Shown: positions 49,700-60,092, numbered from the stretch's first letter. The stretch is DNA of 64,000 bases from an uncultured bacterium (GCA_964603725.1 CAZRWW010000020.1:3291-67290), one strand, 5' to 3'. Notes: a model not told the origin generated them from the letters alone. A program made the numbers and translations.

Positions 49700-50590
49700 C
49701 TACGTGTTCCGCGCGTCGAGGACGGCTCGCATGGCGCGGATGTGCTCGGGCGTGGTGCCGCAGCAGCCGCCGATCACGACAGCGCCCGCGTCGATCAGCT
49801 CGCCCACCCGCTCGGCCATGAACTCGGGCGTCTCCCGGTAGACGGCGCGCAGGCCCTCGGTGTGCGGCAGGCCGGCGTTGGGCTGGAAGATGAGCGGGCG
49901 GGCGCTGGCGGCGGAGAACGCGCGCGCCAGCTCGATCATCTGCTCGATACCGCAGCCGCAATTGGAGCCGATCACATCCGCGCCGGCCGCGGCCATGCCC
50001 GCGGCCGCCGTGGGGACATCGTTGCCCATGATGGTGTAGAAGCCGCGCGGCGTGCGGTTGAACGTCATGCAAGCCATGACGGGCAGCGTCCCCGACACCG
50101 ACCGGGCCGCCTCGATCGCCAGCCGGCACTCGGCCAAGTCCATCATCGTCTCGACGATGAGCACATCGATGCCGCCGTCGATGAGCGCCCGGATCTGGCG
50201 CGCGAAGCTCGCCCGGACCTCATCGGGGTCGGCGTCGCCGTACGGCTTGAGGGTCAGCCCGCAGGGACCGCAGGAACCGTAGACGTAGGCCTGGCCGCCG
50301 GCCGCGCGGCGCACCGCCTGCGCCGCCGCGACGTTGATCTCTTCGGTCCGGTCTTCCAGCCCGTACATGGCCAGCTTGATGGGCGAGCCGCCCAGCGTGT
50401 TCGTCTGGATGATGTCCGCGCCGGCATCCAGGTAGAGACGGGCGATCTCCTCGAGTAACGCGGGCCGCTCGAGATTGACCAGCTCCGGGCACGCGCCGGC
50501 CGCCAAGCCCCGCTCCATCAGCAGCGTCCCCATGGCGCCGTCCGCCAGGAGCACCTTGCCGCCCTGGATGCGTTCAAGCAGTGGGACCAT
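49700..50590 (-). CDS. Stand-alone homocysteine S-methyltransferase domain (MetH N-terminal/BHMT-like)
   Basis: DGAMGT, AGADIIQTNT, ETMMD, Zn-ligand GSNCG and GGCCGTTPEHI motifs. Confidence 0.92.
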   Translation of the reverse strand: MVPLLERIQGGKVLLADGAMGTLLMERGLAAGACPELVNLERPALLEEIARLYLDAGADIIQTNTLGGSPIKLAMYGLEDRTEEINVAAAQAVRRAAGGQAYVYGSCGPCGLTLKPYGDADPDEVRASFARQIRALIDGGIDVLIVETMMDLAECRLAIEAARSVSGTLPVMACMTFNRTPRGFYTIMGNDVPTAAAGMAAAGADVIGSNCGCGIEQMIELARAFSAASARPLIFQPNAGLPHTEGLRAVYRETPEFMAERVGELIDAGAVVIGGCCGTTPEHIRAMRAVLDARNT

Positions 50591-50670
50591 CGCCTCATCC
50601 TCCGCGGATCGCCCGGCGAACGGGCGCGGTCAGCCGCGCGCCCTGCGCGCAGCAGGGCAGGGCCTGACGG

Positions 50671-51303
50671 TCAAGCCATGAGCGCCTTGACGCGCTCGAC
50701 CGCATTGGCCGCATCGTAGGCGTAGCCATCGGCGCCGATCTCGCGCGCGAACTCGGCCGACACCGGCGCCCCGCCGACGACCGTGCGCACGCGGCCGGCC
50801 AGCCCCTCGGACGCCAGTAGCTCGACGACCTGCTTCATCACCGGCATCGTCGTCGTGAGCAGCGCCGACATGCCGATCACCGTGGCCTGCGCATCGCGGG
50901 CCGCCTCGACAAACCGGCGCGGCTCGACGTCCTTGCCCAGGTCGATCACCTCGAAGCCCGCGCCCTTGAGCATGATGCCGACGAGGTTCTTGCCGATGTC
51001 GTGGAGATCGCCCTTGACCGTCCCGATGACCACGCGGCCCGCCATCGGCACGCCCTCGCCCGCCAGGAGCGGCTTGATCACCTCCAGGCCGGCGTACATC
51101 GCCTTGGCCGCCATCAGCACATCGGGCAGGAAGATCTCGTGCGTGCGGAACTGCTCGCCGACGACGTTCATGCCGGCGAGGAGCCCTTGATCGAGGATTT
51201 GGCGCGGCGCGATCCCCTGAGCAAGCGCGTCGCGCGTGAGGGCGAGCACGCGCTCATCGTCACCAGCCTGCAGGTTCCGGGCGATGTCCTTCAGGATTTC
51301 CAT
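50671..51303 (-). CDS. Stand-alone corrinoid (B12-binding) protein, cap plus Rossmann domain
   Basis: GLLAGMNVVG, FLPDVL, GTVKGDLHDIGKNLV (DxHxxG), SALLTTT and GGAP motifs. Confidence 0.95.
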   Translation of the reverse strand: MEILKDIARNLQAGDDERVLALTRDALAQGIAPRQILDQGLLAGMNVVGEQFRTHEIFLPDVLMAAKAMYAGLEVIKPLLAGEGVPMAGRVVIGTVKGDLHDIGKNLVGIMLKGAGFEVIDLGKDVEPRRFVEAARDAQATVIGMSALLTTTMPVMKQVVELLASEGLAGRVRTVVGGAPVSAEFAREIGADGYAYDAANAVERVKALMA

Positions 51304-51374
51304 GATCCTTCCTCTGGGTTGTGGCGCCCCGTTCATCCTCCGGGGTCAGGGGGACCGGGGCGGCAACTGGGCTA

Positions 51375-57875: not shown

Positions 57876-57888
57876 CGGCGGTCCCGGC

Positions 57889-58635
57889 TTACCCGCCCAG
57901 CTCCTTCAGTCTCGCGCGGCAGCTCCATTCCCGGCACCGCGCGCAAAACGGATAGTCATTCGCGAACCTGTGGATCGCGGCGGGGCCGGCGATCAGCACG
58001 CCGCTCACCGACTTGATCGGCCGCATCAAGCAGCTCTCGCTGAGCGTGATCCCGACCGCTTCCGGTTGGAGCGCCCGAAACAGCGCCCGCTGCCCGCTGA
58101 CGTTCCATCCGCAGTAGCCGGGGCTGTAGCGCAGGGCCCGCAATTCGCCGCCCGCCGCGCCCATCGCGGCCTCCCACCGCTCCTGCACCACGCCCGCCGC
58201 CCGCTCCGCTCCCTCCGACGCCGTCGCGTCCAGCACCGCGCCGAGCGGATACTCCCCCGCCTGGAACAGCTCCCCGATCCGCGTGGTCACCGCCTCGCCG
58301 GCGGTCACCGCGAAGAGCGCGAGCCGCTCCGCGCGCGGGAAGATCTCCTCGAGCGGCGTTTCGGGCTCGTTCCCGCCCTCGCCGCGGTAGACGCCGGCGA
58401 ACTCCTCGCGCGTCACATCGCGCCACAGGCCCGCCGGCTGCGCCAGCTCCAGAAACAGCGCGCCGGCGGCCGCCAGCAATCGGGATAGCCGCTCATCGGG
58501 CGCTGGCGTCGCGCCCCCCGCGGTCCGCGCCGAGTCCGGCGCCCGGCCCGCATCCGGGGGCCGGCCCAGCGCCCGCAGCACGTCCTCCGCGCTGGGAATG
58601 ATCGCTTCGGCCGCGATGGGGACGATCTCGCTCAC
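57889..58635 (-). CDS. Stand-alone MetH SAM-dependent reactivation domain protein
   Basis: FAVTAG, RYSPGYCGW...GQRALF...GITLSESCLMRPIKSVSG and C-terminal CxxCxxxxC; GTG overlaps the MttB stop (GTGA). Confidence 0.88.
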   Translation of the reverse strand: MSEIVPIAAEAIIPSAEDVLRALGRPPDAGRAPDSARTAGGATPAPDERLSRLLAAAGALFLELAQPAGLWRDVTREEFAGVYRGEGGNEPETPLEEIFPRAERLALFAVTAGEAVTTRIGELFQAGEYPLGAVLDATASEGAERAAGVVQERWEAAMGAAGGELRALRYSPGYCGWNVSGQRALFRALQPEAVGITLSESCLMRPIKSVSGVLIAGPAAIHRFANDYPFCARCREWSCRARLKELGG

Positions 58636-60092
58636 GCCTCCCGCTCCGGCAGCGGCTCGAGACCGTACTTGCGCGCCTCCCGCGCCATGACCTCCTCGAT
58701 CCCTGCCCGCACCGCTGACCCCAGCCGCGGCGGCTCCCAGGCGTCCAGCATCCGCGCCACCTCGGAGTGCGCCCGCGCCCGCAGCGTGCTGCTGCCCTCG
58801 GCCTCCCAGCGCGCGCGATTGGCACGTTCGATGACGGGCCCGGGGTAGTAGTGCTCGGTCTTCAGGTGCTTGCGCGTGTGCTTCGAGATCAGCAGGTGCC
58901 CCTCGGCCAGCATCTCCTCGAAGCGCGGCAGCGCGGGGAAGTCCTCGCGCGGCGTGATCCCGCGAGCAATCCGCTGCGTCATCCCGACGATCTCGTTGTC
59001 GACGACCAACTTCTCCAGGCTTATACAGCTCTCGAAGTCGAGCATCCCCGGGCCCGATACGCTGTTGATGCCGGAGAGGACCGCCAGAGTCGCGCCCATC
59101 GACGACTCGAGCCCCGCCTGCGCGTCGAGCTGCTTGGCGTCGCTCAGCGAGATGTACGCCTGGGTGGGGAGACCCAGGTGCTTGCCGATCTCGTTGTAGG
59201 CGCAGTCGATCATCATCGTCTCGGCGGCGCCCATGGGGGTCGTCTCGAAGCGGATGTCGAACGCCGCGGGCGAGCCGCCGTAGAGCACGGGACACCCCGG
59301 CCGGGCGAGCTGACTCATGACGAGGCCGCTCAGTGTCTCGGCCGTATGCTGCACGAGCGAGCCGACCAGCGTGACCGGGCCGATAAAGCCGGCCAGCGGC
59401 ATCGAGATGTACTCGACCGGGATCCCGGCGCGCGCGCAGTCGAGCAGATTCTGCGACGTCACCTCGCTCCACTTGAGCGGCGCCGTGGGGCAAACCGAGA
59501 AGATCGTGAGCGGCTTGGCTTTGAGCTCGGCTTCCGTGCCGCGCACCGCGACCTGCAGCGACTTCATCGTCTCGAACGACGGGATGGTGAAGGCGCCGGT
59601 GACAATGGGCTTCTCGCAGTGGAGAAGGCTCAGGTAGAGCCGGTAGCTGTCCTGCATCGGCTCGGGCACGTCGAAAGCGATGAAGGCCGTGCTCTGCGCG
59701 GGAATGTGATCCAGCTGGCTGACGAGCTTCGCGTAGCGCACGTAGTCGACCGTGTGCGGGGCGCGCATCTGACCTGTGTGATGGTCGAGCACCGTGATCC
59801 CACAGGAACCCGGCGTGAAGTAGACATTGTCGCCCTGGAAGTCGTGGGTCTCCTGTCCGAGCACGTCGTACAACTTGAACGAGCGGGGCGCGGCGGCGAT
59901 CGCCCGATCGATGAGCGCACCGGGGAAGCGCACGCGGCGCGTCGCCTCGTCGACCTGCGCGCCGTGGTCGGCCAGGAGCGCCCGGGCGCGCTCGTTCTGG
60001 ATCTCGCACCCCAGGCGGTGCAAAACGTCGCGCGCTTCGTCCAGGATCCGGGTGATCAGCTCGTCGTCCAGAAAGCGCAGCTTGGGTCTCAC
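58632..60092 (-). CDS. mttB: Trimethylamine methyltransferase (MttB) superfamily protein, non-pyrrolysine
   Basis: PLKWSEV, PVTLVGSLVQHTAETLSGL, DAKQLDAQAGLES and GPGMLDFESCISLEKLVVDNE motifs; no in-frame TAG; GAGGAG RBS. Confidence 0.93.
   Translation of the reverse strand: MRPKLRFLDDELITRILDEARDVLHRLGCEIQNERARALLADHGAQVDEATRRVRFPGALIDRAIAAAPRSFKLYDVLGQETHDFQGDNVYFTPGSCGITVLDHHTGQMRAPHTVDYVRYAKLVSQLDHIPAQSTAFIAFDVPEPMQDSYRLYLSLLHCEKPIVTGAFTIPSFETMKSLQVAVRGTEAELKAKPLTIFSVCPTAPLKWSEVTSQNLLDCARAGIPVEYISMPLAGFIGPVTLVGSLVQHTAETLSGLVMSQLARPGCPVLYGGSPAAFDIRFETTPMGAAETMMIDCAYNEIGKHLGLPTQAYISLSDAKQLDAQAGLESSMGATLAVLSGINSVSGPGMLDFESCISLEKLVVDNEIVGMTQRIARGITPREDFPALPRFEEMLAEGHLLISKHTRKHLKTEHYYPGPVIERANRARWEAEGSSTLRARAHSEVARMLDAWEPPRLGSAVRAGIEEVMAREARKYGLEPLPEREA

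Follow-up and report, generated by a model that had tools for sequence, protein, structure and literature searches.

A cluster of four genes was described by Williams et al. (2022, PMC9324843) in metagenome-assembled genomes (MAGs) of Candidatus Electryoneota from Ace Lake and in 'diverse bacteria', and it was proposed to make methionine by a corrinoid-dependent reaction with an unknown methyl donor. Among tested systems MtgBCDE of Ruegeria pomeroyi (split MetH of Phaeobacter inhibens; Mausz et al. 2025, PMC12478193) comes closest; it has an MttB-family first methyltransferase (MT1) and separate corrinoid and homocysteine-binding proteins, and in it methionine synthesis is tied to amine demethylation. 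In the MtgB-MtgC-MtgA system of Desulfitobacterium hafniense, and with MtpB, MtcB, MtyB and MthB of Eubacterium limosum, a non-pyrrolysine MttB enzyme methylates a small corrinoid protein, the step that is also proposed here. MetH and the Thermotoga maritima proteins TM0268/TM0269 have a homocysteine zinc site, a B12 module with the motif DxHxxG and an S-adenosylmethionine (AdoMet) activation module, all of which recur in the locus described below. That locus lies in a stretch of 64,000 nucleotides from an uncultured bacterium (GCA_964603725.1, CAZRWW010000020.1:3291-67290; the whole stretch analysed is called the window) and consists of genes for an MttB-superfamily methyltransferase, a stand-alone MetH-type activation protein, a corrinoid protein and a stand-alone homocysteine methyltransferase, the same four gene types as in the cluster of Williams et al. 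when the two are compared by described gene types. Together they probably, though by no means certainly, form a corrinoid-dependent methyl-donor:homocysteine methyltransferase that resembles MetH and has an MttB enzyme in place of the folate-binding module.

The G+C content of the window is ~70% and there are many long spurious reading frames, so that genes were chosen by third-position G+C together with profile matches. A first-pass annotation, made from the sequence alone, had described four minus-strand genes of these types, and all four are present and intact where it had placed them, with domains as judged by Pfam and NCBIfam (Table 1). They span 10.4 kb as four separate reading frames, unlike the single-polypeptide MetH.

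Table 1. Features of the window, with positions counted from its first nucleotide; two related loci (L numbers) are included for one feature. aa, amino acids; nt, nucleotides.
Feature	Position	Strand	Details
Non-pyrrolysine MttB-superfamily methyltransferase (proposed MT1)	58632-60092	-	486 aa; PF06253
Stand-alone MetH-type activation (AdoMet-binding) protein	57889-58635	-	248 aa; PF02965
Corrinoid (B12-binding) protein, proposed methyl carrier	50671-51303	-	210 aa; PF02607 (B12-binding_2) and PF02310 (B12-binding)
Stand-alone Zn-dependent homocysteine S-methyltransferase (proposed second methyltransferase, MT2)	49700-50590	-	296 aa; PF02574
Leu316 codon (pyrrolysine 334 position)	59145-59147	-	alignment YISL-SDAK against AGSX-SDAK of 7xcl
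PYLIS_3 match, window	59048-59147	-	25 bits
PYLIS_3 match, L006	8106-8205		above gathering threshold
PYLIS_3 match, L012	4168-4267		above gathering threshold
C-terminal Cx2Cx4C motif of activation protein	57919-57945	-	with the PGYC Cys, four cysteines
Lineage-specific insertion splitting the operon	51337-57888	-	Pfam/NCBIfam matches
Class I S-adenosylmethionine methyltransferase	57216-57875	-	in insertion
cysK-like fragment	56569-57264	-	in insertion
O-methyltransferase	55971-56708	-	in insertion
AAA/DUF4143 ATPase	54551-55834	-	in insertion
Membrane protein	52721-54457	-	578 aa; in insertion
ChrA (chromate transporter)	51491-52681	-	in insertion
Divergent intergenic region, presumed promoter region	60093-60637	.	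545 nt; between MttB and HDOD/HD-domain gene 60638-61987 (+)

It is clear from comparison with other genomes that the four-gene set is real and widespread. The first-pass annotation had looked to gene neighbourhoods in relatives as a check, and the same four genes were found to be contiguous in many unrelated phyla; because the contiguous operon recurs in this way the association is beyond chance, and judged from gene order a functional link between the four is well supported. For the stand-alone homocysteine methyltransferase there are more than 120 cluster representatives, whose identity is 59-86% or higher and which belong to Phycisphaerales, Eisenbacteria, Zixibacteria, WOR-3, Elusimicrobia, Planctomycetes and Acidobacteriota. 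The four genes form one tight operon in a complete genome of Phycisphaerales (CP070685.1, L006). Genome loci outside the window's lineage were taken where the homocysteine methyltransferase was at least 52% identical to that of the window and upstream DNA was available, and in 5/5 informative loci (Phycisphaerales, Phycisphaerae, Ignavibacteria and two Acidobacteriota, from a species-representative scan plus CP070685.1) the order MttB, activation, corrinoid, homocysteine methyltransferase was contiguous. A Stahlbacteria contig, which starts within the activation gene, fits that order. The operon-linked clade of homocysteine methyltransferases is bounded at ~50% identity, and matches below ~48% are either pterin-containing MetH or genes that stand alone beside a full MetH. 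Metagenome contigs were searched with an alignment of the MttB clade, and 45 loci with at least 2.6 kb downstream were informative; the full order was present in 30 of them, with median gaps of 19-29 nt and a G+C content between 37 and 74%. Of 18 shorter loci, another 13 were consistent with the operon order.

The corrinoid protein carries DxHxxG as DLHDIG (50992-51009), followed by SxL...GG (SALL...GG), and was scored higher by MtgC_2 (222.8 bits), pyl_corrinoid (199.5) and MtbC (192) than by MetH (140); since the methylamine-cognate models outscore MetH it pairs naturally with MttB as MT1. The homocysteine methyltransferase matched PF02574 with 229.7 bits, and its best NCBIfam matches were PRK08645 (N-terminal domain, 281 bits), PRK07534 (the Sinorhizobium meliloti-type 'Bhmt' model, 218 bits with a cut-off of 338) and MetH (191.5 bits), the match to MmuM being weak (89 bits, cut-off 215). 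The zinc-ligand motifs GSNCG (49955-49969) and GGCCG (49757-49771) occurred in 120/120 homologues, and C211, C276 and C277, the three zinc-ligand cysteines, are invariant. Judged by these profile scores the four-gene set is chimeric, with a corrinoid protein of the methylamine type and a homocysteine methyltransferase and an activation protein from the MetH side. The homocysteine-binding module of MetH, the B12-binding module with its cap and the AdoMet activation module were thus all found as separate proteins, and the pterin-binding one was not found in the window.

The absence of a pterin-binding domain from the window had been reported at the outset and was confirmed by three approaches. 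None was found in Pfam scans of the ~40 predicted window genes; none was found in the window by tblastn with residues 351-650 of Escherichia coli MetH; and a custom pterin-binding hidden Markov model, which recovered 14/14 controls, gave 0 matches in the window and 90 clade loci (866 kb). The search covered the 64-kb window and flanks of 6-10 kb at the other loci rather than whole genomes.

The activation gene is coupled to the MttB gene, its GTG start overlapping the TGA stop as GTGA at 58632-58635, an arrangement indicating translational coupling that had been seen in the first reading of the sequence. The protein matched PF02965 (Met_synt_B12) with 37.9 bits. Its AlphaFold model has a predicted local distance difference test score (pLDDT) of 91, and the best Foldseek match of the model was TM0269 (1j6r, E 3e-12), followed by MetH activation domains from E. 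coli, Thermus and human, with 1msk, 6bm5 and 8sse next among the entries. The motifs RYSPGYCGW (58105-58131), SVSG and FAVTxG align with E. coli MetH. The MetH/TM0269 fold and the R-x-x-P-G-Y motif bear out the earlier assignment of a MetH-type rather than a RamA-type reactivation gene, and no RamA or DUF1638 domain was found by Pfam scans among the predicted window genes; RamA, DUF1638 and the pterin-binding MtgD were likewise not found in four relatives with Pfam annotation. TM0269 reactivates T. maritima MetH in trans, according to a reference cited in PMC7857596. A 916-aa reading frame (57889-60639, minus strand) crosses the MttB gene in another frame, and only its last 248 codons are the activation gene, which illustrates how long reading frames mislead at 70% G+C.

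Four cysteines of the activation protein (C175, C231, C234 and C239) are invariant in the alignment, and the Cys of PGYC together with a C-terminal Cx2Cx4-5C was present in 118/118 homologues of at least 200 aa. Neither TM0269 nor E. coli MetH has these cysteines. The C-terminal motif also occurs in stand-alone activation proteins adjoining activation-less MetH genes in Firmicutes, Collinsella and Bacteroidales (cysteine-motif loci L020, L021, L038, L047, L064 and L081), and the fourth cysteine, that of PGYC, is found in the MttB-linked and Bacteroidales activation proteins. From this pattern it is plausible that the four cysteines are a candidate metal or Fe-S site serving electron input, and the motif raises the question of how electrons are supplied to MetH-type activation proteins in organisms without the flavodoxin system of E. 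coli. Two loci differ at this position. In L109 an aldo-keto reductase (PRK09912-like, 3161-4150) stands in place of the activation gene, and L115 lacks the activation gene and has, directly upstream of MttB, a 449-aa protein (2626-3975) containing a 4Fe-4S dicluster domain; both proteins may be alternative reactivation partners.

The preferred start of the MttB gene is the GTG at 60092, after a GGAGGAG Shine-Dalgarno sequence; the resulting protein has the length of its orthologues, and the position coincides with the end coordinate of the first-pass annotation. The match to PF06253 (MTTB TIM-barrel) is full-length, covering profile positions 29-498 of 500 with 268 bits, and matches in the PDB were 7xcl, 2qne, 9yce and 4yyc. 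The reading frame is without an in-frame stop or UAG, and Leu316 stands at the position of pyrrolysine 334 of Methanosarcina barkeri MttB (phmmer against 7xcl). The score with TIGR02369, the equivalog model for pyrrolysine MttB, was 362 bits, under the cut-off of 525; by this score and by the leucine replacing pyrrolysine, identity as a pyrrolysine trimethylamine methyltransferase was rejected. Leucine occupies the position in 120/121 clade members and also in D. hafniense MtgB, and scores of 193.5 bits with M. barkeri MttB (7xcl) and 192.5 bits with D. hafniense MtgB (2qne) place the window protein at an equal distance from the two. The Rfam family PYLIS_3, the pyrrolysine insertion sequence of mttB, matches within non-pyrrolysine MttB genes that have no UAG (Table 1). 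Such matches reflect homology of the coding sequence and not a pyrrolysine signal, and are a likely source of false pyrrolysine annotation. A very large clade, at 62-93% identity, surrounds the window protein and comes from metagenomes and MAGs only; no cultured organism was found among the best 120 homologues, and the nearest named relatives are MAGs of Candidatus Eisenbacteria. No exact record of the window MttB was found on other contigs, and one of the homocysteine methyltransferase was found only on a 2-kb contig.

The most direct information on the methyl donor comes from the residues that hold it. A structure-function study of 2026 (PMC13080624) gave Y97, R312, H348 and F356 as the glycine-betaine ligands of MtgB, with R312 retained across all characterised members acting on acidic quaternary amines. 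Non-pyrrolysine MttB members methylate their cognate corrinoid proteins (PMC13080624). When the window MttB is aligned to 2qne these positions hold Ser96, Gln311, a one-residue deletion and Glu354, and the three residues are invariant across 121 clade sequences. Because Arg312 and the other ligands are replaced, the clade is no betaine enzyme of the MtgB type, which makes acidic quaternary amines disfavoured donors. A tertiary amine is a poor candidate because pyrrolysine is absent. With all four ligands replaced glycine betaine is unlikely. Of the amine-to-methionine gene set that the first-pass annotation had proposed, the part that holds is that the four genes belong together, as operon conservation indicates; its donors betaine, carnitine and proline betaine are acidic and are disfavoured. 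The best fit would be an onium donor without an acidic group (choline or tetramethylammonium, for example) or else an unknown compound.

The direction of methyl flow, the donor, the formation of methionine, independence of folate, AdoMet-dependent reactivation and a role for the cysteines are inferred. The MttB-clade protein would bind a methylated onium compound, probably a non-acidic quaternary ammonium such as choline or tetramethylammonium, and would methylate the Co(I) of the 210-aa corrinoid protein. The zinc enzyme would activate homocysteine as the thiolate and transfer to it the methyl of methyl-Co(III), so that methionine is formed and Co(I) regenerated. The isolated homocysteine module of MetH transfers methyl from exogenous methylcobalamin to homocysteine. 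After oxidation of Co(I) to the inactive Co(II) form, the activation protein would restore methyl-Co(III) by reductive methylation with AdoMet, and the four invariant cysteines may hold a metal or Fe-S centre that aids electron input. A bolder version of this scheme can be put forward only tentatively: the system would be a self-contained MetH-type synthase that works without folate, in which the MttB clade replaces the pterin module, the donor is a non-acidic quaternary ammonium or belongs to a class new to the superfamily, and an Fe-S centre makes reactivation independent of flavodoxin.

A number of observations weigh against the scheme. No published biochemical or genetic test of the four-gene cluster was found in the literature. 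Genomes with the cluster also carry full-length MetH (Williams et al. 2022, PMC9324843), so that the four-gene system need not serve as their only methionine synthase. The four genes of the window lie as two pairs with ~6.5 kb of unrelated genes or fragments, six in all, between them, and co-expression is not assured. The Arg of the RxxxGY AdoMet motif is variable, being His or Ala in some orthologues. Among the 45 informative metagenome loci six retain two of the three partners of MttB and nine have no partner gene within 6 kb. In the loci inspected the operon has no transporter gene or gene for substrate production as a regular neighbour, so that the neighbourhood offers no clue to the donor; amino-acid permeases occur nearby in two loci and the other neighbours vary (peptidases, aldo-keto reductase, ferredoxin-like protein, sulfatase and prolyl-tRNA synthetase). 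A pterin module unlinked to the operon may possibly lie elsewhere in the genome, given the example of MtgD in Ruegeria, which is indispensable to methionine synthesis as well as to betaine demethylation and is unlinked to the other genes.

The case of MtgD underlies the main rival explanation, in which the corrinoid protein is a shared hub as in Ruegeria MtgBCDE. A split MetH would be fed methyl-tetrahydrofolate through an unlinked pterin protein, and MttB would mainly demethylate an amine, the methyl group going to tetrahydrofolate as well as to homocysteine, so that the system would not be folate-independent. One R. pomeroyi corrinoid protein does serve both methionine synthesis and betaine demethylation, and the part of this genome that was covered is 64 kb. 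However, no gene is linked more tightly to MttB here than the homocysteine methyltransferase, whereas marine mtgE usually lies away from mtgBCD; 0/90 loci had a pterin-binding gene within 6-10 kb; and reactivation is of the MetH type, not the RamA/DUF1638 type. This explanation is regarded as unlikely, although it is the one that fares best among the alternatives to MttB-fed methylation of homocysteine.

A lower probability still is given to the same architecture acting on a donor that is not a methylamine, either a sulfonium (dimethylsulfoniopropionate or S-methylmethionine) or an unknown metabolite that the cell makes itself. The replacement of the four betaine ligands throughout the 121-member clade would fit such a donor, as would the separation of the clade from both MttB and MtgB (alignment scores; Williams et al., PMC9324843) and the want of a consistently linked amine transporter. 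Against it, methylated amines are the substrates of all superfamily members characterised (PMC13080624), and the window protein has the SDAK and DAQAG motifs near the pyrrolysine position in common with the trimethylamine enzyme.

The arrangement in the window itself differs from that in other phyla. Judged by gene order, the ancestral operon is split by inserted genes in the window's Eisenbacteria-like lineage. The insert varies in size and content, from ~3.5 kb in L002 through 5.3 kb in L090 and 6.5 kb in the window to 14.6 kb in L004 and L088, and it is absent in other phyla. Four related genomes share an HDOD gene upstream, which precedes MttB in the window, L002, L088 and L090, and T2SSE/PatA_N genes downstream, and in every relative the corrinoid gene is directly upstream of the homocysteine methyltransferase. 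Ratios of nonsynonymous to synonymous substitution rates (dN/dS) were 0.10-0.32 for all four genes across four genomes of the split lineage, indicating purifying selection; since all four genes are intact and constrained the split has not led to decay. That the two halves are uncoupled in the window, with the homocysteine methyltransferase a corrinoid-independent AdoMet/S-methylmethionine enzyme (MmuM-like) and MttB and the activation protein serving another corrinoid protein, is very improbable: the unrelated genes between the pairs (6.5 kb here, up to 14.6 kb in a relative) and the corrinoid-independent enzymes within PF02574 speak for it, and the constant pairing of the corrinoid and homocysteine methyltransferase genes, the retention and constraint of all four genes in the split lineage and the MmuM score of 89 bits against a cut-off of 215 speak against it.

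Within the insertion the cysK-like PALP fragment (231 aa) gave a partial match to the cysteine synthase profile and overlaps both its neighbours; L090 has an intact 307-aa homologue at the same place, and by this comparison the fragment is probably a decaying pseudogene. The class I methyltransferase was considered as the NCBIfam CpaM (corrinoid protein-associated) and rejected at 68.8 bits with a cut-off of 180. AAA_14/DUF4143 ATPase paralogues occur at 35515-36648 (plus strand) and in the insertion (54551-55834, minus strand), both with a third-position G+C below that of their neighbours, and a DDE_3 transposase fragment lies at 19221-19637 (minus strand); these are hints that mobile DNA has been active here. 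At 17122-22672 and 39317-40111 lie genes for large proteins of a secreted type (beta-helix, peptidyl-arginine deiminase), several ending in FlgD_ig as in relatives, which is consistent with an Eisenbacteria-like (FCB-group) origin of the window.

The intergenic region upstream of MttB contains three tandem repeat arrays (60258-60377 and 60509-60609), of 12 nt x 3.7, 19 nt x 4.3 and 36 nt x 2.8, which could be regulator binding sites or the product of slippage in G+C-rich DNA. No Rfam riboswitch or RNA regulator was found upstream of either gene pair, PYLIS_3 within the MttB coding sequence being the sole Rfam family matched, and a scan of 49000-61000 for promoters and terminators gave counts near shuffled expectation. 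Subunits I and II of a cytochrome bd oxidase (7262-10117, minus strand) and a bacteriohemerythrin (49258-49665, plus strand) that adjoins the homocysteine methyltransferase suggest that the organism meets oxygen, and such exposure is relevant to a Co(I)-dependent system that needs reactivation. The region had also been called methionine-centred on the strength of mtnN and msrC. The first is there (34195-35097; PRK05584, 208 bits with a cut-off of 169) but ~15 kb from the four genes, and the supposed msrC (40124-40597) is a GAF-domain protein only, without an NCBIfam match, so that the argument is weak.

Should the proposed function be correct there would be a further methionine route beside MetH, MetE, the core-MetE families and BHMT, in which demethylation of a methylated amine-like compound is coupled directly to homocysteine methylation through a B12 protein and without folate. 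If the self-contained version were true, the size of the clade would make it a major unrecognised use of MttB-superfamily enzymes, and methylated amines would have in it a sink so far overlooked in many uncultivated phyla, among them Eisenbacteria, Acidobacteriota, Planctomycetota, Zixibacteria and Ignavibacteria. Annotation pipelines label clade members 'trimethylamine methyltransferase' and '5-methyltetrahydrofolate--homocysteine methyltransferase', and both labels are likely to be wrong; the former has already fed inferences on trimethylamine use and mercury methylation in MAG studies. Knowing the donor would alter the way in which B12 demand, the turnover of methylamines and the supply of methionine are deduced for phyla of sediment and soil.

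In relation to known systems the hypothesis is not new, having been printed in 2022, and the window adds only the split arrangement: the cluster of Williams et al. was the subject of one paragraph, without experiments, in a MAG paper, and the version in the window is interrupted by the 6.5-kb insertion. The MesA-D core-MetE families (Price et al. 2021, PMC7857596) also make methionine without a folate domain, the methyl group probably coming from corrinoid proteins, but they have the MetE fold, whereas the catalytic subunit of the window has the MetH/BHMT-type PF02574 fold; MttB is not mentioned in that paper. The D. hafniense MtgC model was the best scorer for the window corrinoid protein, yet in the D. 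hafniense and E. limosum systems, unlike the window set, methyl passes to tetrahydrofolate through a pterin-binding MT2 and reactivation is by RamA, and they act on acidic quaternary amines, which Arg312 holds in place, whereas the window clade has Gln at that position. Ruegeria MtgBCDE has an essential pterin subunit, MtgD, and passes the betaine methyl to tetrahydrofolate, whereas the window has no linked pterin gene; it is reactivated by RamA and DUF1638 rather than by a protein of the MetH/TM0269 type; and its genes are dispersed, with mtgE usually unlinked, whereas loci of the window type have the homocysteine methyltransferase in an operon with MttB. Compared with MetH the window set is without the pterin module, has all of its modules separate and has a B12 module of the methylamine-corrinoid type. 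TM0269 provides both the precedent for reactivation in trans and the best structural match to the activation protein of the window, which adds to the fold of TM0269 and E. coli MetH its four invariant cysteines.

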